A stretch of 64,000 nt of DNA from an uncultured delta proteobacterium (lineage in GTDB: Bacteria; Myxococcota; Myxococcia; Myxococcales; Myxococcaceae), in contig CAVSWU010000003.1 in NCBI GenBank assembly GCA_963731795.1, positions 1,094,216 to 1,158,215 on the forward strand, in the 5' to 3' direction. The translations under genes and the position numbers were made by a program. Positions 27,350 through 64,000 of this stretch are shown piece by piece; within the stretch, counting starts at the first letter, position 1; each line of letters starts with the position of its first letter. The notes under the pieces were generated by a model. The model did no database searches. It was not told the origin of the DNA and saw nothing but the letters and a program-made list of their open reading frames with translations.

Positions 27350-27476
27350 GTCGGAGCCATCCCCTTCAAAAAGTCCAGACAAGACGACAGCGCCCCTATC
27401 CACGAAGGAGAGGGGCGCGTGAGCCTACACAAGGGAACCGGCGCGCACCACCCAAAGTGACGCGCGCCGGCTCGGC

Positions 27477-44448: not shown

Positions 44449-44556
44449 GCCCCCACCGAACGATGGGAATGGGCTCGGCTTCTTGCCTATTGCCTTGACG
44501 GGCGCCTCGTCCTACACGGCGCATCCACATCTCGACCTTTTTTGGAGCACTCGCAT

Positions 44557-45288
44557 ATGGGCCTCTTCGACTTCTTTGGTGGCTCCGGCCCCGAGAAAGC
44601 CCTCAAGCTCAAACCCAAGGTGACCCAGAAGTATGGGGATCCCGCCTCGCGCCAGAAGGCCATCCAGCAGCTCGGGGAGATGAAGTTCCCCGAGGCCGTC
44701 AGCGTGCTGCTGTCGCGCTTCACCCTCACCGTCGAGCCGCTCACCACGGACGCCGACGAGAAGGAGCACGTCTTCGAGCTCATCAAGGGCTTCGACAAGG
44801 ACGCGATCGCCCCCATCCAGGAGTTCCTCCGCAAGAGCGACCAGGCCACCTCCTGGGCGCTGCGGCTGCTCGGCGACCTGCTGCCGGAGCCCGAGGTCAT
44901 CGGCATCTGCGTGGACACGCTCACCCACCTGAGCAGCCACTACACGCGCGATCCGGAGAAGAAGGTCGTCCTGCTGCACCACGTCACGGGCAAGGAGGAT
45001 CCCCGCATCGCCTCCCGCCGTCCTCCCCTTCCTCGAGGACATGTCGGACGACGTGAAGATCGCGGCGCTCAAGGTGCTCGGGCCGCTCAAGTACGAGGCC
45101 GGCCCGCGAGCCCATGCTCAAGCTCCTCACCGCGGAAGAGACCGCGCGCCGCGTGCAGACGGCGGCCCTGGCGGCGCTCCAGGAGAGCGGCTTCGGCGTC
45201 CAGGGCTTCAGGGAGAAGGTAGAGCCCCTGCTCGTGGAGCCCTACGCCCTCGACAAGTCGGGCTTCATCATCAAGCGTCAGGCTTGAG
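44557..45288 (+). pseudogene. HEAT-repeat protein gene with two +1 frame changes
   Basis: Three successive frames carry coherent sequence: ...LLHHVTGKEDPRIA | AVLPFLEDMSDDVKIAALKVLGPLKYE | PAREPMLKLLTAEETARRVQ...IIKRQA*. Shifts near 45015 and 45100 in GC homopolymer contexts. Confidence 0.65.
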
Positions 45289-45381
45289 ACGTACGAGGGG
45301 GCCGCGGTGTCGGACAGCCGACACCGCCACTGTCCTTTCGGCCGCATCTGCCCGCACGGGTCATTCCCCTCCCGTGGAGGC

Positions 45382-47151
45382 ATGGAGGAGGATGGGCCCG
45401 CTCGGGCGTTCCCCCTGGGAATGCCCGCAGCCCCTCTCCGAAGCTCCGAGATTCCCGTGCCCTCGTCCAAGAAGAAAGGTCCCCGCCTCGCCGAGGTCGT
45501 GGCGCTCCGCCCCCAGCTGAGGAAGCAGCCCAAGCGCACGGTGCGGCCTGCCCCCCCGGTCGAGCCCGAGGCCGCCGAGAGCGCCCTGCTGGAGATGGCG
45601 CGCCACCTCACCACCAGCGCCGGCACCACCGAGGTGCTTCGGATCTACCTGCAGATCGTCTTCAATCTGCTCAAGCCCAAGGTCTGCTACGTCGCGCGCT
45701 ACTTCGCTGAGCGCAAGCAGCTCCACGTCGAGCACGTGCGCGGCCGCTACGACGACCGCGTCACCGCCGCCGTCCCTGACGAGGGCGTGGTCGGCCGGGC
45801 CTTCTCGCAGAACACCGTGCTGCGCGAGGACGACACCGTCGTCGTCCCGCTCGAGAGCCCTCAGGGCGTCACCGGGTGCCTCGCCATCATCGCGCCGCGT
45901 CGTGAGGCCTCGGAGACGCTACTGAGGGCGCTGGCGGGCCAGCTCTCCGCCGCCTACGAGGTGGCGCGCCTGCGCGATGACTCGGCGCGGCGCAACAAGG
46001 ACCTCCAGACGGCCATCGCCGGCCTCAAGAGCCTGGAGCAGCACCGCGAGGAGCTGCTCGGCAACGTCTCGCACGACCTGAAGAACCCGCTCACCACCAT
46101 CAAGGCCTACCTGGCCATGGTGGGCCGCGAGAAGCTCGGCCCTCTCACCGATGCCCAGCGCCGCGCGCTGCAGACGTGCGATCGGAACTCGGATCGCATG
46201 CTGCGCATGGTGAATGATCTGCTGCTCATGTCCCGGCTCCAGTCCGGGAAGATGCAGCTCAACCAGCGCCCCTTCGGCCTCAAGGCCGTGGCGGAAGAGG
46301 TGCTGCGCGGGCTGGCGGCGCTCTCCGAGCACAGCAAGGTGCGCCTCCACCTCCCCCCGTGCACGGAGGTCTTCGTCCGCGGCGACCGCGAGCGCATCGC
46401 CGAGGCCATCCACAACCTCGTGGAGAACGGCATCCACCAGAGCGAGGAAGGCGGCACCGTGGAGGTGCGCGTCTCCGCCGAGGAGGGGCTCGCCGCTCTG
46501 TCCGTGAAGGACACCGGCCCGGGCCTGTCCCAGGAGGAGCTGGAGAACATCTTCGATCCGTTCTACCGCGCCCGCTCGGGCACTCCGCGCCCGCTGGGTG
46601 GCCGGCTCGGGCTGCCGCTGGTGGCCAAGATCCTCTCGCTCCACGGCGGCCGGGTGGAGGCCAACAGCACGCTGGGGGAGGGCTCCACCTTCCAGATGGT
46701 GCTCCCCATGTTCGCCGGGGCGGTGAGCGCGCCAGATCTGTCCCAGGCCGCCCCTCGCGCCGGTGGCATCCTCCTGGTCGAGGATGATGCGGACTGCCGC
46801 GAGGTCCTCCAGCAGGTGTTGGAGCAGGAGGGCTACCGCGTCATGTCCACCTCAGGAGCGGCGGAGGCCCGCTCCGTGCTCTCGCACATCCGCCCGGCCA
46901 TGGTGCTGCTGGATCTGCGGCTGAGCCAGGAGGATGGGCGCTCGGTGCTGCACTTCATCCGCGCCACCGAGTTGCTCTCGGATGTCGTCGTCTACATCAT
47001 CTCCGGAGCCAGCGAGGTGGCCTCGCTCACCTCGGGCCAGGGGCTGGATCGCATCGATGGCTTCTTCGAGAAGCCGCTCCAGCTCCCCCGGCTGCTGGAT
47101 ACCGTGGCGTCGGTGGTCCGCCCCAGCCGTCGCAGCCCAGGCATGCCCTGA
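45382..47151 (+). CDS. Hybrid sensor histidine kinase (GAF - HisKA - HATPase_c - REC)
   Basis: H-box LGNVSHDLKNPLTTI, N/G boxes (NLVENGIHQS, DTGPGL, GGRLGLPLV), C-terminal receiver (LLVEDDAD...LLDLRL). Start at MEEDGP taken inside the longer ORF. Confidence 0.85.
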   Translation: MEEDGPARAFPLGMPAAPLRSSEIPVPSSKKKGPRLAEVVALRPQLRKQPKRTVRPAPPVEPEAAESALLEMARHLTTSAGTTEVLRIYLQIVFNLLKPKVCYVARYFAERKQLHVEHVRGRYDDRVTAAVPDEGVVGRAFSQNTVLREDDTVVVPLESPQGVTGCLAIIAPRREASETLLRALAGQLSAAYEVARLRDDSARRNKDLQTAIAGLKSLEQHREELLGNVSHDLKNPLTTIKAYLAMVGREKLGPLTDAQRRALQTCDRNSDRMLRMVNDLLLMSRLQSGKMQLNQRPFGLKAVAEEVLRGLAALSEHSKVRLHLPPCTEVFVRGDRERIAEAIHNLVENGIHQSEEGGTVEVRVSAEEGLAALSVKDTGPGLSQEELENIFDPFYRARSGTPRPLGGRLGLPLVAKILSLHGGRVEANSTLGEGSTFQMVLPMFAGAVSAPDLSQAAPRAGGILLVEDDADCREVLQQVLEQEGYRVMSTSGAAEARSVLSHIRPAMVLLDLRLSQEDGRSVLHFIRATELLSDVVVYIISGASEVASLTSGQGLDRIDGFFEKPLQLPRLLDTVASVVRPSRRSPGMP

Positions 47152-47250
47152 GCAGGGGAGCCCGTCCACAGGTACGAAAGAGGCTGGAAAGCCGCTTTCC
47201 TCCGCTAGTATCCGCCTGGCTCGGAAGCACTTCCTCCGGAGGAAGCCAAC

Positions 47251-49811
47251 GTGGAGAGTGCGGTAGCTCGGACAGCGAACCAGGAAACGGCCGTGCTGAA
47301 GGAAGAGTTTGGACCGATCTCCCGGTGGCTGGGGGCTCGCTACTTCGACGGCGTGCACTTCCCTCCGGAGTCCGAGGTCGAGCTGCGCGAGCTCCACACC
47401 CAGGGCTTCGTGGTCCACGTCATGCGCTCCACGGCGTGGATCAACTTCCTCTACCTGGCCTGGGCCATGGTGCGCCGCGCCCTGCCCCCCATCCGCGCGG
47501 TGGTGAACCTGCGGCCCTGGTTCACCCGCCCGTTCCGCAACACGGCCCAGCGCGGCGACTTCGACGTGCGCTTCACCTACGCCCGGCGCCACGGCGGCAG
47601 CGGCCTCATCTTCCTGAAGAAGACGGCGCTGATGAGCCCCTCGGGCAAGGACATCGAGGAGAACCCCTTCCCGGCCCTGGTGGCCATGGCGCGCAAGGGG
47701 GATCGCAACGTCTTCCTGGTGCCGGAGCTGTTCGTCTGGGAGAAGCGCACCGCGCGGATCAAGCCCGGCCTCATGGACCGGGTGTTCGGCAGCCCCGAGG
47801 CCCCGGGCTTCGTGCACTCGATGGTGGCCTTCTTCCGCAACTACCGCCGCGCCCAGTTCCGCGTGGGCGAGCCCATCGATCTGCAGCGCTTCATCGCTGG
47901 AGAACCCGCAGGACTCGGACGAGGTGATCGCCCGCAAGGTGCGCAGCGCCCTGCACCACCACCTGGCCCGGGAGACTCGCGCCGTCTTCGGCCCGCCCAC
48001 CAAGCCGCCCGAGCGGCTCATCGACGAGACGATGCGCGACCGGCAGCTGCGCAAGGCCCTGGACGCGTACGCCGCCTCCGTGGGCCGCCGCCCGGAGAGC
48101 GTCTACCGCGAGGCCCGGCGCAACCTGCAGGCCATCGCCGCGCGCCCCAGCCCCACGACGCTCGCCTTCGCCTCGCCCGTACTGGACTGGGTCTTCCAGC
48201 GCATCTACGACGGCATCGAGGTGGATGAGGCCGGGCTCCACCGCGCGCTCAAGGCCGCTGGCACGCGCGCCCATCGTCCTGTGCCCCTCGCACAAGAGCC
48301 ACGTGGACTACCTGGTGATGAGCTGGGTGCTCTGGAACCGCGGGCTACGCGGTGCCGCTGGTGGCCGCCGGCGCCAACCTCTCGTTCTGGCCGCTCGGGC
48401 CCTTCCTGCGGCGCTGCGGCGCGTTCTTCCTGCGCCGCTCCTTCAAGGGCGACCCGATCTACTCCGAGGCCTTCCAGGCCTACGTGCACAAGCTGGTGCC
48501 ACGACGGCGTGCACCAGGAGTTCTTCCCCGAGGGCGGCCGCTCCCGCACCGGCAAGCTGCTGCCGCCCAAGCTGGGCATGTTCACCTGGCAGGTGGAGGC
48601 CGTGCTCGAGGGCGCGCGCGGCGATCTGATCTTCGTCCCCGTCTCCATCGACTACGAGAAGGTGGTGGAGTCCGGCAGCTACTCGAAGGAGCTGGCCGGT
48701 GGGGAGAAGAAGCCCGAGGACCTCAAGGCCCTGCTCAGCGCGCCCAAGGTGCTCACGGCGCGCTACGGCCGCATCCACCTCACCTTCGACGAGCCGCTGT
48801 CGCTGGTCGGAGCTCATGAGGAGCCGTGGGCTCTCCCCCGGCGAGCCGGTCACCGACGATCAGAAGAAGGGCCTGGTGCGCGCGCTGGGCAACCGGGTGA
48901 TGTACGGCATCAGCAAGGTGTCCACCGTGACGCCGCACGCCCTGGTGAGCGCGTCGCTGCTGGCCCACCGCCGCCGCGGCATCACCCAGCGCGAGCTCAC
49001 CGACCGCATCACCCTGCTGCGCCGCATCGCCGAGGAGGAGCGCACGCCCCTCTCCACGACGCTGGCCAACGCCCCGAGCGACCCCGAGACGATGGGCGCC
49101 ATCCGGGACGCCATGCAGACGTTCCGCAGCGGACGGGATGATCCGCACCCAGCAGGCGCGCGGCGAGGTCATCTACCAGCCCGAGGACGAGCGCCGCGCG
49201 GAGCTCTCCTTCTACAAGAACACCTTGATGAACCTGGTGGCGCCGCGCAGCCTGGTGGCCAACGCGCTGCTGGTGGGGGCCCCCGCTCCGTACGAGACGC
49301 GTGAAGGCCCGCGCGCTGTTCCTCTCGCGCCTCTTCAAGGTCGAGTTCATCTACCGGGTGGGCACCACCTTCGACACCATCTTCTCGGAGACGGTGGAGG
49401 CGCCTGGTGCGGCTGGGCCTGGTGCTGCGCTCGAATGACACGCTCCAGCTCGCCCCCGAGGCTCACGCCCGGCCCACACTGGAGTTCCTCGCGGACCTGC
49501 TGCGCGACTACCTCGAGGCGTACCTGCTGGCCGCGCTGACGCTCAAGGACGTGGCCGAGGACGCGGTCACGGACCGCAAGGCGTTTCGTCAAGCTCGCGC
49601 TGGAGACGGGCCGCGCCGAGTTCCACGCGGGCCGCATCGGCGCCGCCGAGGCCCTCGCCAAGACGACGCTGGAGAACGCCGTGGCGTACCTGCTCGACCA
49701 GAAGTACCTCGTCGAGGAGGACAAGAAGCTGAAGCTGGGCCCGGCCGCCGCCGAGCCCTCGGCTCGCGAGCAGCTCGCCCACGAGATCCGCCTGTACCTG
49801 CAGCGCGCGTG
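47251..49811 (+). pseudogene. plsB: Glycerol-3-phosphate acyltransferase PlsB gene, interrupted by >=8 frameshifts
   Basis: Recognisable PlsB pieces spread over ORFs 47251, 47924, 48225/48352, 48699, 49138, 49407 (PSHKSHVDYLV, FFPEGGRSRTGKLLPPKLGMF, IFVPVSIDYEKV...). The first shift at ~47905 is explained by one extra G in GCTGGAGAAC. Confidence 0.8.
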
Positions 49812-49827
49812 AGCCGCCGGCCCTGCT

Positions 49828-50266
49828 CTACGGGCCGGTGCGGAACGGGACGCGCACCTCTTCGACGAGCGCGTTGCCCTCGTAGTCGGTGAGGCTCGTG
49901 CGCAGCACCAGGATGAAGGCGGAGTTCGCGGGGAGGGTGCCCGACTCCGCGTTCACCATGACCGTGTACGGGATGTCGCCGCGCTCGACGTTCTCGTCCA
50001 CGCCCGTGTGCGCCGGGCACGGTGATGTGCAGGGGCACCTCATCGCTCCCGGAGAACACGGCGATCCCGGGGCGCAGGGTGCGCACATCCATGAACTCCG
50101 AGAAGGTGATGCTCAGCGTGTCGTCCGGATCGAAGGTGGCGTTGGCCGCCGGATCCGTGGACTGAACCGTGGGGGGCGTGGTGTCACGCACCGCGAGGAG
50201 CGGATCGCCGACCTCCAGGCAGCCGGTGAGGCTCAGGAAGGCACAGGCAGTCAGCAGGTGGCGCAT
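49828..50266 (-). CDS. Lipoprotein with Ig-like (SbsA-type) domain, one frameshift near 50040
   Basis: Signal plus lipobox MRHLLTACAFLSLTGC...; N-part in ORF 49589..50317, C-part in ORF 49828..50088. Confidence 0.6.
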
Positions 50267-50268
50267 CA

Positions 50269-51448
50269 CCGGCACCCCTTCTGCACGAGGCTGGTCTCCG
50301 TGTGGCACTTGAGGCACGGGCGATCATTGGCCGCCGCGAGCCGCTGGCAGCTGCTCGAGAAGCCGGTCGGGTGGGGGTTGACCTGCTGGCGCTGGGACAG
50401 CTCCGAGTGGCAGCTCATGCAGGTCTCCTCGCGGTGGCAGGCCGTGCAGCTGGCTGATGTCTCGCGAGGCGACGATCCCGTGGTGCTGGGGCCCGAGCTG
50501 CACTGCACCCACGTGTTGTAGTCCGGGTGCACCTTGGTGTTGTGCGGGCGCAGGGACTGGTCCGCGTCCATGCCCACGCCGACGCGCTCGTGGCAGGCGG
50601 CGCAGAAGGACTGGAGGCGGTGGCAGCTCTCGCAGCGCGGCGCGTCCGTGCGCGCCTGGATCGGGTGCAGGGTGATGTAGTCGTTCGGGTGCACGGACAG
50701 CGGCTTCTGCAGCGAGTCGTGGCACCGCTGGCAGAACGAGTCCGAGTGGCACTGGGAGCATGTCTGCCGGGACACCGAGGCGCGCGAGCCGTGGTTGAAC
50801 TCGAAGCGCGGGCCATGGTCCATGCCCAGCGGGTCGCCCTGCATGGGCCGGAGGATGCCGGAGGTGAAGTTGAGCTGGAGCCGCCCCGAGGCCTCCTTCA
50901 GGTGGCACGTCGTGCACTCGTTGGGGGCCGGCTTGCCGTCATGGCACTCGAGGCAGGTGGCCATCTTCGGCAGCTGCTGCCGCGTGGCCAGGTTCACCTT
51001 CGTCATGTCCCCGTGGCACGTGACGCAGTCCACCTTCCGGTCCAGGTGCGACCTTGTGGGTGAAGCGCATGTTGGCGGGCGGGAAGTCCAGCTTCGCCGG
51101 CTCCTTGCGCACGGTGGCGATCGAAGCTCGGGTGACACGTGCCGCAGCTTGCCGGCGGGTCCGTCTTCTTGCCCTGCTGGGCGTCCTCGATGTCGTGGCA
51201 GGTCTCGCACTGCTCGTGGCCCGGGAGGTTGCGGTCCTGGGCGCTCTCGCTCTTGGCCGACGGACTCGTGACAGGTGGTGCAGTCCGCGCCGGCATCCAG
51301 GTGCAGCGCGTGATCGAAGCGCAGGGGGATGTTCTGCGCGGGGAAGATGGCGAGGCTGCGCTCGCGGCCCGAGGCGGCCCAGGCCACTCCCGCGGTCGCG
51401 AGTGAGAGGGCAATCAGAGCCCAGTGCGTTCCGGAACTGGCGGTCCAT
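50269..51448 (-). pseudogene. Multiheme c-type cytochrome (about 12-13 CxxCH), >=4 frameshifts
   Basis: CxxCH motifs CTTCH, CETCH, CGTCH, CVTCH, CLECH, CTTCH, CSQCH, CQRCH, CESCH, CAACH, CTACH, CMSCH, CLKCH across three frames; signal peptide ALIALSLATAGVAWA out of frame with the ATG at 51448. Confidence 0.75.
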
Positions 51449-52859
51449 CTAGAGGTTCGCCTTGAGATCGAAGAGGAAGAAGACCTTGGAGTCCGAGCGG
51501 GAGAACGGGTTGACGTTCTCCTCGACCACCAAGGAAGCGCGGGTCGCGCGGCTCAGCGCCCGGCTGGCCCAGACCTGCGCCCCGAAGAAGTTGCCGCGGA
51601 GTTGTGGATTGAACTCATCACCGACGTGCGCCACCGAGAGCCGCCCGTCCAGATCGTAGAGGCCCTGGTCGAAGCTGTAGCCGCCGGTGAGATCCACCCA
51701 GAGCTGGTTGCCGCCAAAGCCAGTCCGGTACGTCACGTCCAGCGCCGAGCGCAGACTGCCCCGCCGCAGCGAGGCGCCCACGCTCCCGCCCACGTTCGTC
51801 GAGCCCGGAGCGCCCGGCTCGTCCACATGGCTCGCGAGCCCGAGGTTGCTCGTTGATGTTGGTGTGGTACAGGCTGGCCAGCGCCTGGACGTAGTAGCGG
51901 AACGGGCCCACCGGGTAGAAGTCCGCTCGCAGGCGGGCCTCATCCCGAGGAGCAAAGGCGAAGTAGTACCAGATGGAGTCCGAGGAGAAGACCGGGGTGA
52001 AGCGCATCGCCTCGCACGCTGAGGGCGTACAGCTCGCGATCCCAGCGCACCTGCGCGCGAGCCTGCGCCAGCGTCAGCTGCATCAGATCGAAGTCCACGC
52101 CCGCCAGCGCGCTCACCCCACGCCCGCGCGTGTAGCGGAACTCCAGTCCAGCGCGCTCCAGGTCCGTCTTCCCGGCCAGCATCGCCTTGCGGAAGCCGAG
52201 CGAGCCGCTGAAGCCCTTCAGGTCCCCCATCAGCAGCTTCGCGCCGAACACGGGCTCCAGTGAGCCCAGGCTGCTGTCCGCGCCGACAACGCCCTGGTCC
52301 AGGCGCCGTGAGTCGCTCTCGCGCGTGCCGTCCGGCTGGTACACCGAGGAGGACAGGAAGCCCGCGCCCTTCACCCACAGGCCACCGTAGGCCTCCACGC
52401 CCACGCCGAACCGCGACATGTACCGCAGCCGCAGGCCGTCGAAGGCCATGATGTCCATCGAGTCGATGTAGAGCTGCCGCCCCAGCTTGCCCTCGAAGCC
52501 ACCCGAGGCGTAGCGGGCGTACGCGTACATGAGGTCCGCGTCCTCGGCCCGTCAGCCCGTCCACCTTCGCGGCCTCGCCGCGCGGCAGCCCGAAGTCCGC
52601 GAAGATACGCAGGCTGGACTCGAAGCCGAGATCCTGCCCGGTGACCAGCTCGAAGGCGTTGAGGCCCAGGTACTGGACGATCCGCCGCCGAGGCAGCAGC
52701 ACCACGTCGTCTGGCGTGGTGCCCCGCCAGGCGCGAATCTGGTACGCCTGCGCCTCCGTGCGCGCTTCGATCTGGTACTGCCGCCGCCGACGCCGACCCC
52801 GCCGCCAGCACCCCCAACACCAGGCTCACGGCCCGGGTGGTGTGCGCGGCCCTCCTCAT
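51449..52859 (-). pseudogene. Outer-membrane beta-barrel protein gene, multiple frameshifts
   Basis: Signal MRRAAHTTRAVSLVLGVLAAG; alternating beta-strand pattern; C-terminal ...KVFFLFDLKANL; pieces in ORFs 52371..53813, 51940..52530, 51618..52007, 51449..52705. Confidence 0.65.
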
Positions 52860-53018
52860 GCTTCGCTGCGCTCGATCCAGGAAGAACCTCACAGTGCCGG
52901 CATTATATGGAGAGCGCCTCGGTTGATTCAGGTTTTCGCGCCCCTCCTTTCGTGAGGAGAGGAGAACACGGTGGAAGATTCCACCCTTAGCCCCCCGCCA
53001 GAGCCTCTTGCCCCAACG

Positions 53019-54124
53019 ATGAGCCCCTGGCCATGGCCGCCATCTGCGGGGGCCTCGGGCTGGTGGCTCTTCCTGACACTCGGCTTCATCACCCAGATCC
53101 TCAACGCGGCCTTCGGCATCTGGTTCACGGAGATCTTCATCTTCCTCGCCGTGCCCTGGGTGGTGCTGCGCGCGGCTCGCTATGAGCCCCTGGGGTACAC
53201 CGGCGCGCAGTTCCCAGGGCTGGCGCCCGCGGCGCTCGGCTTCGGACTGGGGGTGGCCAACTTCTTCGCGCTCGTGGTGCCCATCCAGTACGCCGCGCAG
53301 TCGGTGGCCCCCCAGTGGCTGCGGGATATGTTCGATGGGAGCCGCATCTTCGAGGGCCAGAGCCCGCTGGAGCTGACCCTCATGCTCGCCGGCGTCTCCG
53401 TGGCCGCGCCCGTCTGTGAGGAGTTCTTCTTCCGCGGCGTCTTCCAGAAGGGCCTGCTGGCATCCTCGCTCTCGCGGCCTGCCGCCGTGGTGGTCACCGC
53501 CGTGGTGTTCAGCGCGTTCCACATGGATCCGGTGGGCTTCCTGGCGCGGGTGGAGCTGGGGGTGCTGTTCGGCGCGCTGAGGCTCTACACGGGCTCGCTG
53601 TGGCCGAGCATCCTCGCGCACTCGGCCAATAACGTGGTGTCCTCGTTCCTGTTCCTCTCGTCGCGGCAGATGGGGCCCGAGAGCGCGGACGAGCGTCCCC
53701 CGCTGAAAATCGTCCTCATGCTGATCGCTCGCGGGCATGGTGGCCATGGGGATTCTGCTGGTGCTCGCGCGTATGTTCCCTGCGCTGTGGGGGCCGAGGC
53801 AGGAGCCGCCCACCTACACCCAGCCCTCCCCTTCCCTCGCGCGGCTGCTGCTGCCGTGGGTGCTGGGGGCAACACTCTCCGTGGGGGCCCTGGTGCTCGT
53901 GGATGCCCGAGGCATCCGGCTGAGCTGGATCGACCTCCAGTACCACCTGCCCAAGCTGCCCCAGGACGCTCCGGAGGGGCTCAAGACGGAGCGCGAGAGC
54001 CTACTTCGGCTGAGGCGAGGAGGCTCGCAGCGGACGGGCACCCGTGGAGGCCTACAAAGAGGAGCGCACCCGGCAGGCCCAGGAGCGCCCGTCACAGCCA
54101 GAGCCCACTCCAGAGAAGCCATGA
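53019..54124 (+). CDS. CPBP-family (CAAX/Abi) intramembrane metalloprotease, two frameshifts (~53740, ~54010)
   Basis: Motifs EEFFFRG, FSAFH, HSANN in ORF 52971..54179; C-terminal membrane or coiled part continues in ORF 53737..54495. Confidence 0.7.
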
Positions 54125-54150
54125 GGCCCCGAGCAGCTCCCAGCCCGGGG

Positions 54151-54366
54151 CTACAAGAACCGGTAGGAGGCCACGTTGAAGACGGGCCCCACCATGTGAA
54201 TCGTCACCGCGTCGTTGTCCACCTTGCCTTCGACCTCGACGCGCTGGCCGTCCTTCTTGATCTTCCGATCCCCGCCGGCGAGCTGGTAGGTGCGGCCGTC
54301 ATCGCCCTCGAGCACCCACACGCCGGTCTCGATGTCGCGGAAGACGATGCGCCCGCTCAGCTTCAT
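54151..54366 (-). CDS. Small hypothetical protein (71 aa, beta-rich)
   Basis: MKLSGRIVFRDIETGVWVLEGDDGRTYQL...; start overlaps the stop of the upstream membrane-protein gene. Confidence 0.5.
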   Translation of the reverse strand: MKLSGRIVFRDIETGVWVLEGDDGRTYQLAGGDRKIKKDGQRVEVEGKVDNDAVTIHMVGPVFNVASYRFL

Positions 54367-54761
54367 GCCGTCTCCTTCTTGAGCATCGCGCGAGCGATGA
54401 AGACGCAGATCAGCGTGTTCACCACGAGCCACGGAATCGCCAGGAAGGTGAAGGGCATGTACGCCAGCCCCGGCGCCTTGGACCAGGCCGCGTAGCCCAG
54501 GAAGCCCGCGAAGCCGAGCGCCAGGCCACCGATGGCCGGCCGCAGCCCGCGGAACTTGATGGCGATGAACGACAGCACCGCCGGGATGATCGCGCTGTAG
54601 AAGAGCGGGTTGGCCAGCTTGCCGCGGCCGAAGATGATGCGCTGCCAGTCGGGGATCGGCAGCGACACCGCGTTCACCACGTCCCCGGCCGTGCCGGAGG
54701 CCCCGCCGAAGATCGAGCGAGCGAAGAACACGCCCACCGTGGCCAGCACCAGCGGCACCAC
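54363..54761 (-). CDS. Hypothetical integral membrane protein
   Basis: 132 aa with 4 predicted TM segments. Confidence 0.55.
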   Translation of the reverse strand: MVPLVLATVGVFFARSIFGGASGTAGDVVNAVSLPIPDWQRIIFGRGKLANPLFYSAIIPAVLSFIAIKFRGLRPAIGGLALGFAGFLGYAAWSKAPGLAYMPFTFLAIPWLVVNTLICVFIARAMLKKETA

Positions 54762-54818
54762 GAAGCTCGGGTTGAAGAGGAGGTTGAGGTAGCCCGGCCG
54801 CTGCGCGACGGCCCAGCG

Positions 54819-56190
54819 TCAGCAGCACCAGCGCCAGCAGCGCCAGCGCCCACCAGAGCGAGCGGCCACTGCCCGCCCAGCGCCACCGAGCGCCTCCAGC
54901 GAGCCCTCCGCGTTGAGCAGGCCGTGACCGTACTCCTCGCTCCAGGCCTGGCCGTTCACGCGCCTGGCGCCCTCGAACAGCGCCTTCTCCACCTCGTCCG
55001 GGCCGCTGGCGCCCGCCGCGTACAGGAGCGCCGCCACCGCCGCCACGTGCGGAGTGGCCATGCTGGTGCCCTGGTACGAGGCGTAGACGGAGCGCGACGG
55101 GTCCTTCGGATCGATCGTGTTCTGGATGATGCCGTTCTGGTCGCCCTTGCGCTTGTCGCCGCCCGGCGCCGCGATGTCCAGCTCCTTGCCGTAGGACGAG
55201 TACGGAGCGCGAGTGCCCATCCGGCCCCACGGCGGCCACGGCCACCGCGCCCGGGTAGGCCGCGGGGAACTCCACGCGGCCGCGCGCCGGCGTTGCCCGC
55301 CGCCGCCACCACCGTCACGCCCTTCTTGCGCGCGTACTCCACCGCGTCGGCCATGACCTTCGAGTACCCGCCACCGCCCAGCGACATGTTGATCACCTTG
55401 GCGCCCTTGTCCGCCGCGAAGCGGATGGCGTCCGCGATGTCCGCGGAGGTGCCGCTGCCGAAGTGGTTGAGCACCTTCACCGGCATCAGCGTCGCCTCGA
55501 AGGCCACGCCCGCCACGCCCTCGCCGTTGTTCGTCGCCTGGGCGATGGTGCCCGCCACGTGCGTGCCGTGGCCGTGGTCGTCGTTGGCGTGCTCGTCGTC
55601 GTTCACGAAGTCGTAGCCCTCGACGAACTTCACGCCCTTCAGGTCCGGCACCTGCTTGAAGTCGCTCGTAGTCCTCGTAGGCGATGCCGGTGTCGAGCAC
55701 CGCCACCACCACGCCCTTGCCCCGGCTGCGCGTCCCAGGCCTTGGGCATGTCGATCATCTTCAGGTTCCACTGCTTGCCGTAGTCCGGATCGTTCGGCGT
55801 GAAGCTGGAGTGGTACTCCAGCAGCGGCTCGGCGGACTCGACGGCCGGGTTCTGGCGGATGCGCTCCAGCGCACTCTCCACGTCATCCACGCCCACCGCC
55901 ACGGTGAGGCCGTCGTCGTTGCCCTCGATCGAGTTGAACTCGAGGTCCACGCCCCACTCGGCCTCCCAGGCGTCGAACTGCTCCTTGGTGGTGCCGTCCT
56001 TGAAGTCCACCACGATGCTGCCGGGCACCACCTCCGCCTCGGAGAGATCCAACGTCGGGGCCGACTGACTCGCCTCGGGGGAGGCCGGCGAGGCCGCCTC
56101 ATTGCTCTTGGAAGAAGAGCAGGCCGCGGTTACCACCACCGCGAGGGCTACCACCGCGTTCGCCAGGATCCTTCGCATCATCTGGGGCAC
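54819..56190 (-). pseudogene. Subtilisin-like S8 serine peptidase with N-terminal lipoprotein signal and I9 propeptide, >=3 frameshifts
   Basis: ORF 55639..56190: signal VVTAACSS plus inhibitor-I9-like propeptide. Catalytic D (VAVLDTGI), H ([11 protein letters not shown]), S ([15 protein letters not shown]) in other frames (54956..55771, 54819..55712). 3' end uncertain. Confidence 0.7.
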
Positions 56191-56343
56191 TCCTCAGAAA
56201 CGAGGCATTCCTTCAACAGACCCGTACGAACGAACGGCGAAACGATTGGGTCTGTCTTGCAGTCTGTTCGACCGAACGGTCAGCCGGCAAGCGCCGGAGT
56301 ATTGAGAAACCTTAAGAAGTCTGAACGTTTGCACGCGCATCGG

Positions 56344-57642: not shown

Positions 57643-57744
57643 GCCACTCGACGCACCGCGTTATCCCTGGACGGCAACTTTTCCGTCTCAGGTACGACAA
57701 TTCCTCCCAAAGGCAGCACTCCCTCACGAATTCACGGAGTCCCC

Positions 57745-58708
57745 ATGAGCCTCATTGATCGCAGCCGGAACCTGGTGAACCAGGTGCGCACCGGCGTCGA
57801 GAACACCGCCCACAAGGTCGAGAACGCCGTCAGCAACACCGTCCACAAGGTGGAGGACGTAGCGGCCCAGACGGGCCAGAAGATCCACAACGTGGTGGAC
57901 GGCTTCGAGACCAAGGCCGTCAACGGCGCCAAGGCCGTGCAGGGCTTCTTCGGCGGCGGCAACCAGCCGGACAAGGTGTACGACGGGCAGTTCGTGGGCG
58001 CTGGCGGCAAGACGTACCCGCCCGGCACGCTCGCTGAGCGACGTCCCCGGCGTCACCCCGAAGAACAACCCGAACCCCTCCGAGACGATCGTCTACGTCA
58101 ACGGCATCAACACCACGAAGGACGGCCAGGCCAGCAGCCTCCAGTCGATCGCGGACACGACGGGCGCCAAGGTGGTGGGCATCCACAACGCCACCGAGGG
58201 CATGGGCGCGGACCTGGCCCAGTGCGTGAAGGACAAGCTGGACAAGGGCACCAACCCGGCCGTGGATACGCTGGCGGACACGCTCTACAAGGAGCTCAAG
58301 GCGGGCCACTCGGTGCACGTGATGGCGCACAGCCAGGGCGGCCTGATCACCAGCCGCGCGCTCGACCACGTCTACAACCGGCTGCGCATCGAAGATGGGA
58401 TGTCCAAGGCCGATGCGCAGAAGACCATGAGCAAGCTGAACGTGGAGACGTTCGGCGCGGCGGCCGCGCACTACCCGGACGGCCCCAACTACGTGCACTA
58501 CGTCAACAAGAGCGACCTGGTCCCCGACGCCTTCGGCCTGGGCCCGGCCAAGTGGAACCCCCTCACCGACGGCGGCAAGGGCGCCGTGGTGCACCGCTTC
58601 AACGAGTTCCACGCCAACCCCATCGCCTCGCACGGCTTCGAGTCCGTGTACCTGCAGCACCGCGTGCCGTTCGATCAGGCGCGGGCCGGTAACTTCGGCG
58701 ACAAGTAA
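57745..58708 (+). CDS. Candidate secreted effector/toxin with C-terminal lipase-like alpha/beta-hydrolase domain (GHSQG), one frameshift near 58030
   Basis: No signal peptide. C-terminal domain has VYVNGINTT (oxyanion region), VHVMAHSQGG (nucleophile elbow), KSDLVPD (Asp) and ASHGF (His), resembling Bacillus LipA-type lipases. N-part in ORF 57745.., C-part in ORF 58172..58708. Confidence 0.6.
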
Positions 58709-58797
58709 CAATGGCGACCGCACCTCGAAGTGGCCTGGCGGGCCTCCTGATGTCGTGGGTGGCCGGCCTGGCGCCTGCGTCCCCGGCGGGCGCGCCC

Positions 58798-59238
58798 ATG
58801 ACGCGGGAGGGCGCGCAGCGGCTGGTGCAGTCCTTCGTCCGGCCCCACGGCTCATTGCAGAGCCAGGGGCTGAACCAGGAGGGCTTCGGCGGCCTCATCA
58901 TGGGCGGGGCGCAGCTCTACTTCGAGTGGCACGAGGACACGAAGGCGCTGGAGTGCAGCGCCCTCGTGTACAAGTTCCACGATCCGCCCAAGCCCGGCGT
59001 GCTCGAGACCTTCCAGGCTGAGGAGAAGGAAGGCACGGACACCGGCGGCGGCACCGTGGCCTACGAGCCCGAGAACCGCGGGCTGTACCTCAGCCGGACC
59101 TATACGCAGGTGCCGGATGAGCGCGCCTTCGCCAAGGACATGAAGCGGCTGATGAAGGCCAGCCTCAAGTGGAGTGACGAGGTGCTGGACCGCGTGGCCT
59201 CGCGCGTGTTCCACCCCGAGGAGCTGGAGCAGCGCTGA
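58798..59238 (+). CDS. CesT/YbjN-like type-III-chaperone-fold protein, paralog B
   Basis: MTREGAQRLVQSF...LIMGGAQLYFEWHEDTKALECSALVYKFHDPPKPGVLE...GLYLSRTY...MKRLMKASLKW; paralog of 57220..57642. Confidence 0.6.
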   Translation: MTREGAQRLVQSFVRPHGSLQSQGLNQEGFGGLIMGGAQLYFEWHEDTKALECSALVYKFHDPPKPGVLETFQAEEKEGTDTGGGTVAYEPENRGLYLSRTYTQVPDERAFAKDMKRLMKASLKWSDEVLDRVASRVFHPEELEQR

Positions 59239-59295
59239 GCCTCGAGGAGCGGGTGGAGTCGACTCCCCCGCTCCACCGAGGCCGCGGGCCCAGAC

Positions 59296-60493
59296 TCACA
59301 CCGAGGCGAGCACGTAGAACTTGAGGTACTTCCCCTCGGGGAACTGCAGGCGGACCGGGTGATCCGGCGGCTGGTAGCGCTCCTCCACCAGCGCGAGATC
59401 CACGCCGGCCTTGAAGCTCGCCTCGCGCACCGCGCCCATGAAGTCATTCGGGCTGACGCGCGCCGAGCACGAGGCCGTGGCCAGCAGCCCTCCCGGCCGC
59501 AGCAGCGCGAGCGCCTGCCGGTTGAGCGAGGCATACCCGTCGATCGCCGCCTGCACCGCGCGCTGGCTCTTCGCGAAGGCGGGCGGGTCCAGGATGATCA
59601 GATCGAACGTGCGGCCCTCGTCCTTGAAGGACTGGATGATCTTGAAGACGTCCGCGGCGAGGAAGTCGTGCTTCTCCGCCGGCAGCCCGTTGCGCGTGAA
59701 GTTCTCCCGGGCCAGCGCGATGGCGTCCGGATCCAGGTCCACCGAGAAGACGCTCTTGGCCCCGCCCAGCGCCGCGTTCACCGAGAAGCCGCCGCTGAAG
59801 CAGAAGCAGTTGAGCACGTCCCGGTCCTTCGCCAGCCGGCGGATGAGGAAGCGGTTCTCGCGCTGGTCCAGGAAGAAGCCCGTCTTCTGCCCCCGCCACG
59901 CGTCCACGAGGAAGGTGGCGCCCCGCTCGCGGATGGGGATGAGCTCCGGCGCGGGAGGCCCGTGGAGCATCCGCCCGGAGCCGCGCCCGTCGTCGTCCTC
60001 CACGTCGTCGCGAGCCACCTCGTCCCGGCCGAGGATGCCCTTCAGCTCGGGAATCGCCGCCTTGAGCGCCTCGACGATGAGGTGGCGGTAGGGCGTGAGG
60101 CCCGCCGAGTACAGCTTGAGCACCACGTAGCCCGCGTAGAGATCCGCAACCACGCCCGGCAGCCCGTCGCCCTCGCCGTGGAGGAGGCGGAAGCTGTCCG
60201 TGTCGGTGAGATCGATGAGGGCCTCGCCGCTCGGCGAGCGCCTGCTTCACCCGCCGCGCGACGAAGTCCGCGTCGATGTTCTCCCGCGGATCACGCGTGA
60301 GCACGCGCACCGCGATGGCCGAGTGCGGATCGAAGTAGCCGCGCGCGACGAACTTCCCGTTCTCGGTGAGGTCCACCACGCTGCCGGCGGGGATCTTCGG
60401 CACCTGCTCCAGCGCCTTGCGGAACACCCACGGGTGGCCTGCGCGCAGGTGGCGGCCCAGTCCGCGGGCCAGCTCAAGCTTGACGACGTTCAC
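59296..60493 (-). CDS. rlmI: 23S rRNA (cytosine-C5) methyltransferase RlmI-like (PUA + class I SAM MTase), one frameshift near 60235
   Basis: N-terminal PUA-like VNVVKLELARGLGRHLRAGHPWVF (GTG start 60493, RBS GGAG). MTase motifs VLNCFCFSGGFS, DLIILDPPAF in ORF 59296..60153. Confidence 0.7.
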
Positions 60494-60497
60494 GAAG

Positions 60498-61310
60498 TCA
60501 CTCCTGAAGAGCCGGGCGGCGGCCTCGCTGGGCGAGGATGGCGCGGGCCAGCTCCTCGAAGCCCCGCCCCTCGGCGGCCCGGGTGATGAAGGCCGGCGGC
60601 GCGTCGATGCGGTCCAGCACGCCGCGCACGTTGGCCACCCCCACACTGAGGGCAAAGGCCTGGAACATCGGGGCGTCGTTGAAAGAATCCCCGGCGTAGA
60701 CGGAGCGGCCGTCCTCGGGCGTCAGCCGCTCGCCCCACGCCACCCGGGCGAAGCGCCGCGCCATGGACAGCTTGTCGAAGCGCCCGATCCAGCAGTTGAC
60801 GTGCACCGAGGAGCGCACCGCCGTCACGCCCCGCGCGCGCAGCAGCGACTCGATGCGGCTGGCCGCCGCGTCCCCGAGCCGGGCCTCCTCGTTGTAGTCG
60901 ATGGCCAGATCCACTTCGGTGTACGCGCTGTCCGAGGACAGCCGGGCGCCCGGCACCTTCTTCAGCACCCGGAGCACCTCCGAGCGCAGGCGCTTCCGGT
61001 TCGCCACTCGCTCGGCGGGCGCCTCCGCGTACACCTTGCGCAGCACGCCCTGAGCGCCTCGGACGAAGAAGAGCCCTCCGTTCTCCACGATGACGCCATC
61101 CACCGGAAGCGTGCGTGCCCAGGCCTCGCCCCACCCCGCCGGGCGGCCGCTGACGAGCACCACCTTCAGCCCCGCCGCGGACAGGCTCTCAAGCGCACGA
61201 ATCGTCTGGCTGCGCAGCTTGTGGCCCGTGGTGAGCGTGCCGTCCACGTCGGTGAAGACGCTCCTCCACCTGGGACAGCTCCGCCTCCCGGAGAGGCCGG
61301 GGGAGGGTTG
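60498..61310 (-). CDS. HAD-IIB family hydrolase (mannosyl-3-phosphoglycerate phosphatase-like), N-terminus frameshifted
   Basis: Motif I FTDVDGTLTTG (needs a frame change to reach an ATG), then VLVSGRP, GDSFNDAPMF. Stop at 60498 abuts the rlmI start. Confidence 0.65.
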   Translation of the reverse strand, partial: QPSPGLSGRRSCPRWRSVFTDVDGTLTTGHKLRSQTIRALESLSAAGLKVVLVSGRPAGWGEAWARTLPVDGVIVENGGLFFVRGAQGVLRKVYAEAPAERVANRKRLRSEVLRVLKKVPGARLSSDSAYTEVDLAIDYNEEARLGDAAASRIESLLRARGVTAVRSSVHVNCWIGRFDKLSMARRFARVAWGERLTPEDGRSVYAGDSFNDAPMFQAFALSVGVANVRGVLDRIDAPPAFITRAAEGRGFEELARAILAQRGRRPALQE

Positions 61311-61339
61311 CTAGCATGCTGACTCTCGCCGACTTGGAA

Positions 61340-62518
61340 GAAGGAGACTGCCTCACGTCACACCCAGGTTCGCCAGCAGGCTCTGGCAGGTTCTCCAGCG
61401 TGGCGCGCAGCTCCGGGCCGGTGAGGCTGGCCAGCGGCGCCTTGCGCGCCTTGCGCAGGAAGGCATCCATGTTCGCCTCGCGCCCATAGAGGGACTGACC
61501 GATGGCGGCCGCCTCGGCCAGCAGGCGCGCGGCGTTGGCCGGATCCGAGTCCAGCAGTCCCATGGCCCGCTCCAGGCGCACGCCGCAGGCGGCCCACACC
61601 TCGCGGTCGTTGATGATGAGCACCTGCCGCTGGTTCACCGCGGACAGCGAGCGCACCAGGCCATCCAGCTCCTCCAGCACGGTGAGCAGCTCGTCCTTCG
61701 GCGGGTTGGGCAGAGGAAGCCAGGGGCCCCACCTTCCCGCGGAGCTCGATGATGTGCCGCTTGTCCTGCGCGCGCAGCGCCCCGGTAGGCGGCCGTCCGG
61801 CCGAAGGCGTCCAGCTCGTTCTGGAGCTGCTGGGCGTTCGTCTGGATGTCCCCGGGCGCGGCGTCGCGCACCTTCGCCAGACGCGCCGAGAGGATGCGCC
61901 CCAGATCGGCCACGATGGCCCGCACCGTCATCGAGGCCTTCACCTCCGCCTCGTAGCCCGGCACCACTTCCTTCCGGGACACGTCCGCGAAGGCGCTGAT
62001 GGACGAGTAGACGAGGTTGCTGATCTGCTCTCGGAAGGCGGACCGGAAGCGCTGGATCTCCGCCAGCAGCGTCCACCGGTCGGACACCACGGAGGGGTTG
62101 CGCATGGCCTCGCCCAGCTGGGTGATCTGCTGGGCCATCTGGATCATCGCCTCATGCAGCAAGGCCGCCGCGTCCCTCGCCCGCCCCTCGTGCGTCGCGC
62201 GCGTCGCCGCGTCCGCGCTGGCTCCCGGCGGCTGCGCCGGGAACTCCTCGCGGATGACGTGAGCAGCGCGTTGACGTCCATCACCGTGTCGCGGATGACA
62301 GGGGCCATCTCCTCCCACAAGGACAGGTCCGCGCCCGACTCGGTGGAGTCGGTCTCGTACTTCACCAGGTCCATGTCACTGAGCCGCGCGATGGCCTGCG
62401 CGGCGGCGGCGTACACCTTCCTCAGGCGCCCGGCGAATGCCGGATCCGGGAGCGTCTGGAGGATCTGCTCGAGCCTCGAAGACAGGGGGCAGGAGTCGTT
62501 TCTGCGGACACGAGGCAC
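61340..62518 (-). pseudogene. Hypothetical protein gene with >=2 frameshifts
   Basis: Coherent segments across ORFs 62144..62518, 61635..62318 and 61189..62076; no family assigned. Confidence 0.45.
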
Positions 62519-62617
62519 ACTCTAGACCGATCTGACGCCGCTGGGCCCTCGACTTCTCACCCGGTTGGTTCTACCCATCATGAGCGCGTCGCGTTCCACC
62601 GTTGGGAGTACCGCACC

Positions 62618-63566
62618 ATGAAGATACAGGTCTGTCTCCTGGAGGGAGGTCGAACCCTCGTCGGCGGCGAGGAGCTGCTCGACAAGCCTGGCCCCAAGTG
62701 GATCGACGTGCTCGCGCCCAATGAGGAGGGGCTCAGCAGGCTCGGCGAGCGCTACTCCCTGCACCGGTTGGCCGTCGAGGACTGCCTCCACCTGGATCAG
62801 CGCCCCAAGATGGAGGAGTACCCCGGACCACCAGTTCATCGTCCTCCAGGGCTTCACCGCCGGGCAGGACATCTGCGACCTGACCCTACAAGAGCATCAC
62901 TTCTTCCTCGGGCCCGGACTGGCTGATCAGCGTCCACGAGCTCCCCTTCGACGCGCACGATGAGGTGCGCCGTCGGATAGAGGCCGATCCCGAGGGGACG
63001 CTCGGGCGGGGGGTGGACTTCATCCTCTACCTGCTGGCGGACGTGTTGATCGACCGGCAGTTCCCGATTCTGGACACCTTCAGCGACGAGCTCGAGGACC
63101 TGGAGGCGGCCATCTTCGAGCAGGCGGAGAAGCGACCACCTGCAGCGCATCTTCGAGCTGAAGCGCATGCTGATGCCGTTCCGTCGCGTGCTCTCGCCCC
63201 AGCGGGATGTGGTGGGGCTGTTTGCCCGGCGAGGCATCCCCCACGTCCAGGATCGAAACCACCCTGTACTTCCGGGATGTGTACGATCACCTCGTCCGGC
63301 TGTACGAGCAGATCGACTCCGGGCGCGACATCCTGGGCAACGTGATGGACGGCTACCTGTCCATGGTGGCCAACAAGACGAACGACATCACCAAGCAGCT
63401 CACCATCTTCGCCACGATCTTCCTGCCGCTGTCCTTCATCGTGGGGTTCTTCGGACAGAACTTCCCGCAGATCCAAGGCCCGGGCGAGTACTACGCCATG
63501 TGGGTGACGATCGCGGTGATCCCTATCGCGCTCATCTTCTGGTTCAGGCACAAGCGGTGGTTCTGA
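62618..63566 (+). pseudogene. corA: Magnesium/cobalt transporter CorA gene, >=4 frameshifts
   Basis: CorA N-domain (WIDVLAPNEEGLSRLGERYSLHRLAVEDCLHLDQRPKMEEY) and C-terminal TM region with YGMNF-like GQNF (FLPLSFIVGFFGQNFPQI) spread over ORFs 62618, 62721, 62965, 63167/63207. Confidence 0.75.
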
Positions 63567-63582
63567 GCTTCCCGGAGGCGCC

Positions 63583-64000
63583 TTGCTGACCGTGACCGTC
63601 GATGGCATCCCCCTGCACTACCGAGATGTGGGCCAGGGGATGCCCGTGCTGTTGCTCCATGCGTTCCCGCTGAATGGCTCGGCGTTCGACGCGCAGGTGA
63701 AGGCGCTCTCGGGCCGCTACCGCTTCATCATCCCGGACCACCGAGGCTTCGGGCAGAGCAAGCTGGGTGAGGGGCCCACGGAGATGAGCCGCATTGCCCG
63801 GGACGCGCTGGCGCTGCTGGATGAGCTGAAGCTCGACTCGGCGGTGGTGGGAGGCGTGTCCATGGGTGGGTACGCGACCATGGCGCTGCTGCGCGAGGAC
63901 GCGGGGCGCGTGCGCGGGCTGGTGCTGGTGGACACCCAGGCCACGCCGGACGACGAGGCGGGCCGGGCGCGGCGCGAGGCCTCGGCGAAGGAGGCGCTCG
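63583..64000 (+). CDS. Alpha/beta hydrolase fold protein, partial (runs off window end)
   Basis: TTG start after GGAGG; LLLHAFPLNGSAFDAQ...IIPDHRGFGQS...VVGGVSMGGYA (HGxP-like and GxSxG motifs). Confidence 0.7.
   Translation, partial: MLTVTVDGIPLHYRDVGQGMPVLLLHAFPLNGSAFDAQVKALSGRYRFIIPDHRGFGQSKLGEGPTEMSRIARDALALLDELKLDSAVVGGVSMGGYATMALLREDAGRVRGLVLVDTQATPDDEAGRARREASAKEAL

Follow-up and report, generated by a model that had tools for sequence, protein, structure and literature searches.

Genes and features of the locus

The window, the whole 64,000-nt stretch of DNA analysed here, is myxobacterial (Hyalangium-like) and contains in its last 19 kb a zone in which 13 genes are split by extra bases totalling approximately 45. 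In the first 45 kb, secY is the single broken gene. The window was aligned with three relatives by MAFFT (four-way), namely L001 (92.4% nucleotide identity) and L021 and L002 (both approximately 87%). The features are given below with their coordinates, strand, and the single-base insertions (+1), two-base insertions (+2) and single-base deletions (-1) that they carry.

26001..27350, minus strand: secY, outside the zone; +1 (A) at 26,676 and 26,681; 5' end approximate.
44557..45287, plus strand: gene for a HEAT-repeat protein; +1 (G in both cases) at 45,010 and 45,101; corrected product 242 aa, as in L001.
45307..47151, plus strand: gene for a hybrid histidine kinase/response regulator; intact inside the zone.
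47251..49812, plus strand: plsB (glycerol-3-phosphate acyltransferase); nine +1, at 47,898 (T), 48,265 (G), 48,341 (C), 48,498 (G), 48,808 (C), 49,127 (C), 49,298 (C), 49,403 (C) and 49,588 (G); corrected ORF 850 aa, as in L001.
49828..50317, minus strand: gene for a Big_5 lipoprotein; +1 at 50,010 (G).
50266..51448, minus strand: gene for a multihaem c-type cytochrome; +1 at ~50,452, 51,050, 51,118, 51,259 and 51,418, and +2 (TG) at 50,504-50,505; corrected product 391 aa, as in L001.
51449..53079, minus strand: outer-membrane beta-barrel-like gene with no Pfam hit; +1 at 51,851, 52,014, 52,552 and 52,776; 5' end approximate.
53033..54124, plus strand: gene for a CPBP (Rce1-like) intramembrane protease; +1 at 53,064, 53,726 and 54,017; start approximate.
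54363..56208, minus strand: gene for an S8 subtilase with a DUF5942 membrane region; +1 at 54,802, 54,863, ~54,880 (inferred), 55,215, 55,287, 55,665 and 55,729.
57745..58708, plus strand: gene for a lipase-like 'effector' with an HSQGG motif and without a Pfam match; +1 (G) at 58,029; corrected product 320 aa, as in L001.
59296..60493, minus strand: rlmI-like SAM methyltransferase gene (PUA_3 and Methyltrans_SAM); +1 at 60,219 (G).
60498..61310, minus strand: gene for a HAD-family hydrolase; +1 (C) at 61,263, close to the 5' end; start approximate.
61353..62520, minus strand: conserved hypothetical gene; +1 at 61,387, 61,712 and 61,778, and -1 at 62,259; corrected product 387 aa, against 388 aa in L001.
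62580..63566, plus strand: corA (Mg2+ transporter); +1 at 62,828, 62,916, 63,135 and 63,253; corrected frame open over its full length.

In the cytochrome gene, the +1 at ~50,452 and the +2 at 50,504-50,505 together re-establish the reading frame after 17 wrong codons. The variable 5' leader of the histidine kinase gene carries two events that may be natural, a +1 (T) at 45,370 and a -1 at 45,431. A further +1 is found in the 5' leader of the S8 subtilase gene, at 56,183; removal of the extra bases from this gene leaves a 607-codon ORF, the C-terminus of which is identical to that of the 613-aa L001 protein. The effector gene is flanked by two intact small paralogous genes (57,139-57,642 and 58,711-59,238). 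The secY events were placed by four-way alignment with L043, L045 and L047. They consist of two extra A's, 5 nt apart and of the same non-homopolymer type as the events of the zone, and SecY is continuous (~448 aa) once both are deleted in silico.

Density and extent of the extra bases

Direct same-strand frame switches, counted with a codon-usage Viterbi segmentation over six frames, number 7 in positions 1-44,500 and 33 in positions 44,501-64,000, equivalent to 1.6 versus 16.9 per 10 kb. Six of the 7 are ordinary gene junctions and the remaining one is secY, at ~26,682. At syntenic loci, relatives with short-read or finished sequences show 1.0-2.5 frame switches per 10 kb. In the MAFFT alignment, the interval from 45,010 to 63,253 contains 43 +1 insertions and a single +2 (TG, 50,504-50,505) that are specific to the window and absent from all three relatives, the ORFs of which are intact; 41 of the insertions are single-column, window-only events, with two further +1 and the +2 placed by inspection. 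The sole clear coding deletion of the zone is the -1 at 62,259 (TT to T). These results, including the comparison with close relatives that the initial annotation had proposed, confirm its description of a frameshift hotspot in the last 19 kb, with only secY affected in the first 44 kb. Each of its per-gene interruption counts is equalled or surpassed (HEAT gene 2, plsB 9, lipoprotein 1, cytochrome 6, beta-barrel 4, CPBP protease 3, S8 protease 7, effector 1, rlmI 1, HAD 1, hypothetical 3 insertions and 1 deletion, corA 4). Its overall estimate of ~30 single-base indels holds for the type of event but not for the number, which is ~45, nearly all of them insertions.

The events are strongly clustered, with 42 sites in 18.3 kb versus 1 site in 45 kb (binomial P = 7e-22), and the zone itself includes event-free stretches at 45,371-47,897, 56,184-58,028 and 58,030-60,218. 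A chimeric join at ~45 kb is ruled out: the DnaJ-HEAT adjacency across this boundary is kept in three related contigs (L043, L044 and L045), and there is no step in the identity to L001. Because the gene order is the same in these contigs, the boundary is not a misjoin. A 4.7-kb NRPS ORF in the clean part of the window is error-free, and this sharp within-contig contrast counts against an artefact.

The sharply regional zone and its clean sub-blocks would also be expected if the segment had been patched or gap-filled with a single unpolished read or a small number of them, had been missed by short-read polishing in a hybrid assembly, or had been derived from PacBio CLR or another platform; error in raw PacBio CLR reads is typically insertion-dominated. 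However, a raw-read patch should raise substitutions and deletions as well, neither of which is in excess, and the nearest empirical match for the events is a documented Nanopore-only metagenome-assembled genome (MAG; L017, see below). A technical origin of these other kinds appears unlikely, if still worth consideration.

Sequence context of the insertions

Most of the inserted bases are C or G, flanked by unlike neighbours. Just 7 of the 41 repeat a neighbouring base and so lengthen a homopolymer, compared with 20.2 expected and with none of 5000 simulations giving a value as low; the other 34 events lie outside homopolymers. This depletion rules out an origin in homopolymers or G/C runs. 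It also contradicts the initial placement of the sites in G/C runs, the example for which, an extra G at ~47905, is in fact an extra T at 47,898 (ATCGC[T]GGAGAAC). Insertions exceed deletions by a ratio of ~40:1, with ~45 insertions against one clear coding deletion. An apparent minimum spacing of ~61 nt between insertions proved to be an artefact of an incomplete event list: the distance is 52 nt between sites 50,452 and 50,504, ~17 nt between 54,863 and ~54,880, and 5 nt within the secY pair. Inspection by eye, with no formal test, detected no pattern in positions modulo 500 (a polisher window) or in intervals relative to 60-nt FASTA lines.

Tolerance of the extra bases through programmed +1 frameshifting, transcriptional slippage or RNA editing would account for the protein similarity kept in each shifted frame, and for nothing more. 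The sites have no slippery motif or homopolymer in common, and they are absent from the relatives, which encode the same proteins in one frame. To our knowledge, there is no precedent for ~45 tolerated frameshift sites in 13 unrelated genes of one 19-kb tract. This lack of conservation effectively refutes such mechanisms, the probability of which would be negligible.

Preserved homology and selection

In silico deletion of the extra bases, together with re-addition of one T, brings every checked ORF back to the length found in relatives, including those for CorA, HAD and RlmI, with the S8 protein at ~607 aa. Frame-joined translations match Pfam models end-to-end across the shifts, covering positions 1-343 of 344 in GPAT_C and 4-291 of 292 in CorA, and Peptidase_S8, Rce1-like, cytochrome c7, PUA_3 and Methyltrans_SAM models are likewise matched across shift points. 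Intact homologues of ~850 aa align with the joined PlsB along its full length (100%), with identities of up to 92%. In the databases searched, no independent assembly of the same species was found: the top PlsB homologue stood at 92%, an S19 query matched relatives only, and exact-protein queries with DnaJ, a 175-aa protein and EF-G had no match. Metagenomes scanned for a pattern that covers the 47,898 site gave 34 chance matches and no relative.

Window-unique substitutions number 282, versus 489 unique to L001, and their distribution over codon positions is 59:38:122 in the window and 103:58:228 in L001. No excess of mismatches is seen 1-20 nt around the insertions. With no substitution excess and a normal codon-position bias, the earlier observation that the shifted genes show no substitutional decay is borne out. 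The substitutions in the window are those of normal purifying selection.

A genuine and very recent inactivation would require a local burst of +1 mutations, for example through error-prone repair synthesis over 19 kb, that left real pseudogenes of plsB, corA, rlmI and the cytochrome/porin cluster. The physical clustering of the events in one tract is compatible with such a burst, and, secY apart, the genes hit need not be essential. However, essential secY has the same lesion outside the tract, there are ~45 insertions to a single coding deletion, mostly outside homopolymers, and neither substitution excess nor change in codon-position bias accompanies them. The identical signature also occurs in two other public contigs, in which ribosomal genes are fragmented. 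Known spontaneous frameshift spectra and the deletional bias of bacterial pseudogenes are the opposite of the spectrum in the window; a natural spectrum would show deletions no rarer than insertions, and slippage at repeats. True bacterial pseudogenes, arising through reductive evolution or recent niche change, share with the window frameshifted genes of still recognizable homology; yet their relaxed constraint, their mixture of deletions, stops and substitutions, and their sparing of essential genes do not apply here. Real inactivation of these genes is very improbable. It is just as improbable that the ~45 non-templated +1 insertions, in one 19-kb tract and secY, would be real in a living genome and too recent for other decay.

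The same signature in other contigs

Two further public contigs, both of long-read style, show comparable events. L017 is a contig of a Nanopore-only MAG from Microflora Danica, a long-read catalogue assembled from Nanopore data only with Flye (--meta --nano-hq) and one Medaka round (PMC12313526). Its unique events comprise 54 +1 and 5 -1, compared with 1-4 and 1-6 in its relatives; 5 of the 54 insertions extend a homopolymer, the inserted bases are C (26), G (15), A (8) and T (5), and 52 of the 54 fall inside 4.8 kb. L044 is a 624-kb fragmented metagenome contig ('contig_12001') from a related Hyalangium, and its contig name follows the same style as that of L017. Its genes for EF-G, L4, L2, S8 and SecY are fragmented, and it carries 53 +1 versus 20 -1, with enrichment of G[C]G and C[G]C as in the window. 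The errors of these Nanopore-only MAG contigs resemble those of the window in the large surplus of +1 over deletions, the insertion of C or G in G[C]G and C[G]C contexts, the rarity of homopolymer extension, the fragmentation of conserved genes and, for L017, regional clustering. The window differs from L044 in that its 19-kb error zone lies beside at least 45 kb of clean sequence, whereas in L044 errors are dense across all 20 kb.

Strain polymorphism offers a further technical explanation, in which the consensus would write both alleles of a SNP in tandem, giving a +1, and the zone would represent two collapsed strains. For 27 of the 40 coding events in the window, exchanging the neighbouring third-position base for the inserted one would be synonymous, compared with 18.0 expected (P=0.004), and scarcity of homopolymer extension is expected under such stacking of alleles. 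Collapsed haplotypes are known to give apparent frameshifts in long-read assemblies (PMC8445201). In the case described, Trypanosoma brucei Lister 427, the false frameshifts likewise result from consensus indels, are correctable and vary in density along the sequence (PMC8445201). However, that organism is a diploid eukaryote assembled from PacBio data, while a link to polymorphic sites is weakly suggested in the window and absent from the comparators: no enrichment is detected in L044 (17/44 versus 19.3 expected) or L017 (26/54 versus 25.4), even though the remaining signature is shared. The mild excess at the 2|3 codon junction in the window, L044 and L017 is accounted for equally well by a sequence-context preference. 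An origin in stacked alleles is considered improbable.

Consensus error as the probable origin of the frameshifts

The frameshifts of the window are very probably long-read consensus errors in the assembly rather than mutations in the organism. They are regarded as a data-quality artefact because their pattern matches the consensus errors of Nanopore-only metagenome genomes. The initial preference for consensus indel errors over old pseudogenes is supported by every test run, with evidence from the window-unique bases, the repairable ORFs, the normal selection, the involvement of secY and the signature common to L017 and L044. According to the proposed mechanism, consensus building from noisy long reads would add spurious single bases, mostly C or G between unlike neighbours, as in Nanopore-only MAGs produced by Flye and one Medaka round. 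Each extra base would shift the frame, and gene callers would therefore report fragments. We infer that the platform and pipeline behind the window would be of this Nanopore-only MAG type. The clustering at 45.0-63.3 kb likely stems from locally poorer consensus support, with reduced read depth, a graph edge specific to one strain or an effect of the contig end as candidate causes.

The events are distinct from classical homopolymer indel errors of long-read, 454 and Ion Torrent data. Like the classical errors (PMC8812927; PMC9262707), they are single-base, gene-fragmenting, biologically meaningless and polishable. However, 34 of 41 window events are non-homopolymer, and instead of a mix or a majority of deletions nearly all are insertions. 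A literature search retrieved no account of this exact signature of clustered non-homopolymer C/G +1 errors. Published accounts of Nanopore consensus errors stress errors in homopolymer length (PMC8812927; PMC9262707); the window does not show this pattern, a point that was counted against an artefact.

Significance for gene content and genome catalogues

On the present evidence, the organism has intact copies of plsB, corA, rlmI and secY and an intact cytochrome/porin cluster. The sequence of the window gives no ground for claims of gene loss and is of low biological interest in itself. Over 45-63 kb, any gene call, count of pseudogenes, estimate of coding density or metabolic reconstruction drawn from the contig will be wrong. 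Since the signature is present in two further public contigs, it may be widespread among catalogues of Nanopore-only MAGs. The presence of clustered non-homopolymer C/G +1 errors in public MAGs of this kind, some of which may be GTDB species representatives, is better supported than the view that such insertions are real. Clustered C/G +1 insertions between unlike neighbours are not the homopolymer errors for which users of long reads usually check; if the former interpretation is true, standard quality checks centred on homopolymers would not expect them.

Frame-switch hotspot

The nearest public genomes to the window, whose G+C content is 64-72%, belong to Hyalangium: a Hyalangium sp. MAG (L001) shares 92.4% nucleotide identity across 43,055-63,758, and H. 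versicolor (L021, L043) shares 87-93%. The gene content is as follows.

First part: NRPS module, regulators, S10-spc ribosomal-protein cluster with secY-adk-map, fusA-tuf, rpsL-rpsG, dnaJ
After dnaJ: HEAT-repeat gene, hybrid histidine kinase, plsB, lipoprotein/multihaem-cytochrome/beta-barrel cluster, CPBP protease
After the CPBP protease: S8 protease, lipase-like gene between two paralogous small genes, rlmI-like gene, HAD, hypothetical, corA

Reading frames were followed with a seven-state Viterbi codon model trained on the clean genes of the window. Direct same-strand frame switches numbered seven in 1-44,500 (six at ordinary gene junctions, one within secY) and 33 in 44,501-64,000, or 1.6 versus 16.9 per 10 kb; in syntenic loci of short-read or finished relatives, the same model gave 1.0-2.5 per 10 kb. 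The hot zone (45,010-63,253) differs from the first 45 kb with a binomial P=7e-22. Frame-joined translations span whole Pfam models (GPAT_C 1-343/344 and CorA 4-291/292, among others), and the joined PlsB can be aligned over its full length with intact ~850-aa proteins, the highest identity being 92%. This contrast in density, combined with end-to-end homology, shows that the frameshift hotspot reported in the initial annotation is real in the sequence.

When 24,594-44,858 was aligned as a control with three relatives (L043, L045 and L047), a single coding lesion was found, in secY on the minus strand, where extra A's stand at 26,676 and 26,681, 5 nt apart (AGCGT[A]CGCG[A]GACTC); deleting both yields one continuous SecY. 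Every gene in 1-24.5 kb is open with full-length domain matches, which, together with the control alignment, confirms secY as the sole broken gene of the first part, as initially annotated. The NRPS module (1-4,678, minus strand; C-A-T-C domains) forms an uninterrupted 1,559-codon ORF running off the window start, and since this long accessory ORF contains no frame break, the cleanness of 1-45 kb is not merely a property of conserved genes. The secY insertions are of the non-homopolymer type seen in the hot zone, yet lie within an otherwise clean part.

Anatomy of the indels

A MAFFT alignment of 43,040-63,760 with three relatives (L001, L021 and L002) contains 41 window-only single columns, one window-only dinucleotide (TG, 50,504-50,505) and ~10 window-only single-base gaps, all except one of them in intergenic or 5' regions; coding sequence has just one clear deletion, at 62,259 (TT -> T). 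Two further single-base insertions, at ~50,452 and near 54,880, are masked by gap placement, the second being inferred because the S8 protease ORF reaches the C-terminus of its L001 counterpart only once this base is removed. The total is thus ~45 events, more than the ~30 first counted in the hotspot. In the cytochrome gene, the insertion at 50,452 and the dinucleotide 52 nt away jointly restore the frame, garbling just 17 codons, and frame-based detection overlooks the pair. A minimum spacing between insertions, apparent early, vanished with the complete event list.

The inserted bases (n=41) comprise C16, G14, T8 and A3, most frequently in the contexts G[C]G and C[G]C. An inserted base equals its neighbour in seven cases, against 20.2 expected under random insertion (0/5000 simulations as low). 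The insertions therefore lie mostly outside homopolymers, not in G/C runs as had been proposed, and the example offered near 47,905, an extra G in a run, proves to be a T inserted at 47,898 (ATCGC[T]GGAGAAC).

Integrity of the interrupted genes

The broken genes are not truly dead, because their substitutions are normal, local mismatches are absent, the indel spectrum is unnatural and the essential secY is hit as well. Window-unique substitutions (282) are fewer than those unique to L001 (489) and are split among codon positions in similar proportions (59:38:122 versus 103:58:228); neither measure gives a sign of relaxed selection, which upholds the initial statement that substitutional decay is absent. 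No mismatch excess occurs within 1-20 nt of the insertions. The spectrum comprises ~45 insertions versus one coding deletion, mainly outside repeats; natural frameshift spectra, shaped by slippage and by the deletional bias of bacterial pseudogenes, are the opposite. The lesion in secY is of the hot-zone kind.

Repair in silico, by deleting the extra bases and putting back the T at 62,259, restored each ORF checked. The HEAT protein (242 aa), PlsB (850 aa), cytochrome (391 aa) and lipase-like effector (320 aa) regain L001 lengths, the hypothetical protein reaches 387 aa (388 in L001) and the S8 protease ~607 aa (613 in L001); CorA, HAD and RlmI are full-length. True pseudogenes and programmed frameshifting each failed every test that could be applied.

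Origin of the extra bases

Two public contigs carry a similar insertion signature.

ena:ERZ25039597 contig_12001 (L044), 624 kb: related Hyalangium, 90% nucleotide identity
CAVYSY010000022.1 (L017): contig_30814 of Microflora Danica MAG MFD05674.bin.2.184

In L044, EF-G, L4, L2, S17, S8, L6, SecY and Adk are split into fragments across 20 kb, although the window has this same operon in clean form. Comparison with L043, L045 and the window gives 53 single-base insertions and 20 single-base deletions unique to L044, and its insertions show the C/G bias of the window and its enrichment for the G[C]G and C[G]C contexts, with homopolymer extension depleted (16 versus 25.6 expected). L017 comes from a Nanopore-only catalogue assembled with Flye (--meta --nano-hq) and one Medaka round (PMC12313526). 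Compared with two other relatives and an Illumina MAG that is 92.7% identical, it has 54 unique single-base insertions and five unique single-base deletions (its relatives, 1-4 and 1-6); the inserted bases are C26, G15, A8 and T5, 5/54 extend homopolymers, and 52/54 cluster in 4.8 kb (1,096-5,892), followed by two in the next 6.4 kb. Frame switches per 10 kb are alike in order of magnitude (window zone 16.9, L044 13.3, L017 9.7), and the window zone matches this documented Nanopore-only MAG in direction, base bias, context and patchiness of errors.

The frameshifts are thus very probably an assembly artefact, produced by long-read consensus errors. Spurious insertion columns would have been retained during consensus or polishing at poorly supported places; at 45-63 kb, such poor support could stem from the local depth, from a graph edge specific to one strain or from a nearby contig end. 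The initial preference for consensus errors over pseudogenes is supported by repair, selection and both contigs, but not its placing of the sites in G/C runs or its count. A misjoin at the zone boundary is unlikely, because DnaJ-HEAT adjacency is kept in three related contigs and there is no step in the identity to L001. Allele stacking, in which the consensus would place the two variants of a strain SNP side by side, is a minor possibility: the inserted base is a synonymous alternative of the adjacent third position in 27/40 cases in the window (18.0 expected; P=0.004), but this enrichment is not shown by L044 and L017. The junction of codon positions 2 and 3 takes 64/138 insertions (46%, versus 33% expected), a mild excess present in all three sequences, which a sequence-context preference explains equally well; the excess is probably such a context effect of the error process.

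It is well established that indel errors fragment genes in long-read assemblies (PMC12007338, PMC8812927, PMC9262707, PMC8445201), and the usual account (PMC8812927, PMC9262707) emphasizes homopolymer-length errors, a defining feature that the window insertions fail. No description of this exact signature was found in the literature searched. A PlsB homologue search found no same-species assembly, identity topping out at 92%, and a metagenome scan with a pattern across one insertion site found no relative. The biological interest of the hot zone is low; in practical terms it serves to warn of an under-described error signature, non-homopolymer insertions.

Other features of the window

Genes at 57,139-57,642 and 58,711-59,238 encode small paralogues (167 and 175 aa) without Pfam hits, ~75-79% identical in nucleotides to each other's counterparts in relatives, and the 320-aa protein between them carries an HSQGG serine-hydrolase-like motif; in its layout, the arrangement resembles a toxin/effector gene accompanied by duplicated immunity genes. 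The minus-strand cluster at 49,828-53,079 (Big_5 lipoprotein, multihaem c7-type cytochrome, beta-barrel-like protein) may be a porin-cytochrome type module, and BLAST matches across 47.3-53.7 kb place the cytochrome cluster in synteny in many Hyalangium, Archangium and Myxococcus loci. The stretch at 9,085-12,600 has lower G+C (~64%), is scored non-coding by the codon model and yet contains a 605-aa ORF, whose product has MopE metal-binding motifs as well as an ice-binding-like adhesin domain; given its atypical codon usage, this gene may have been acquired.
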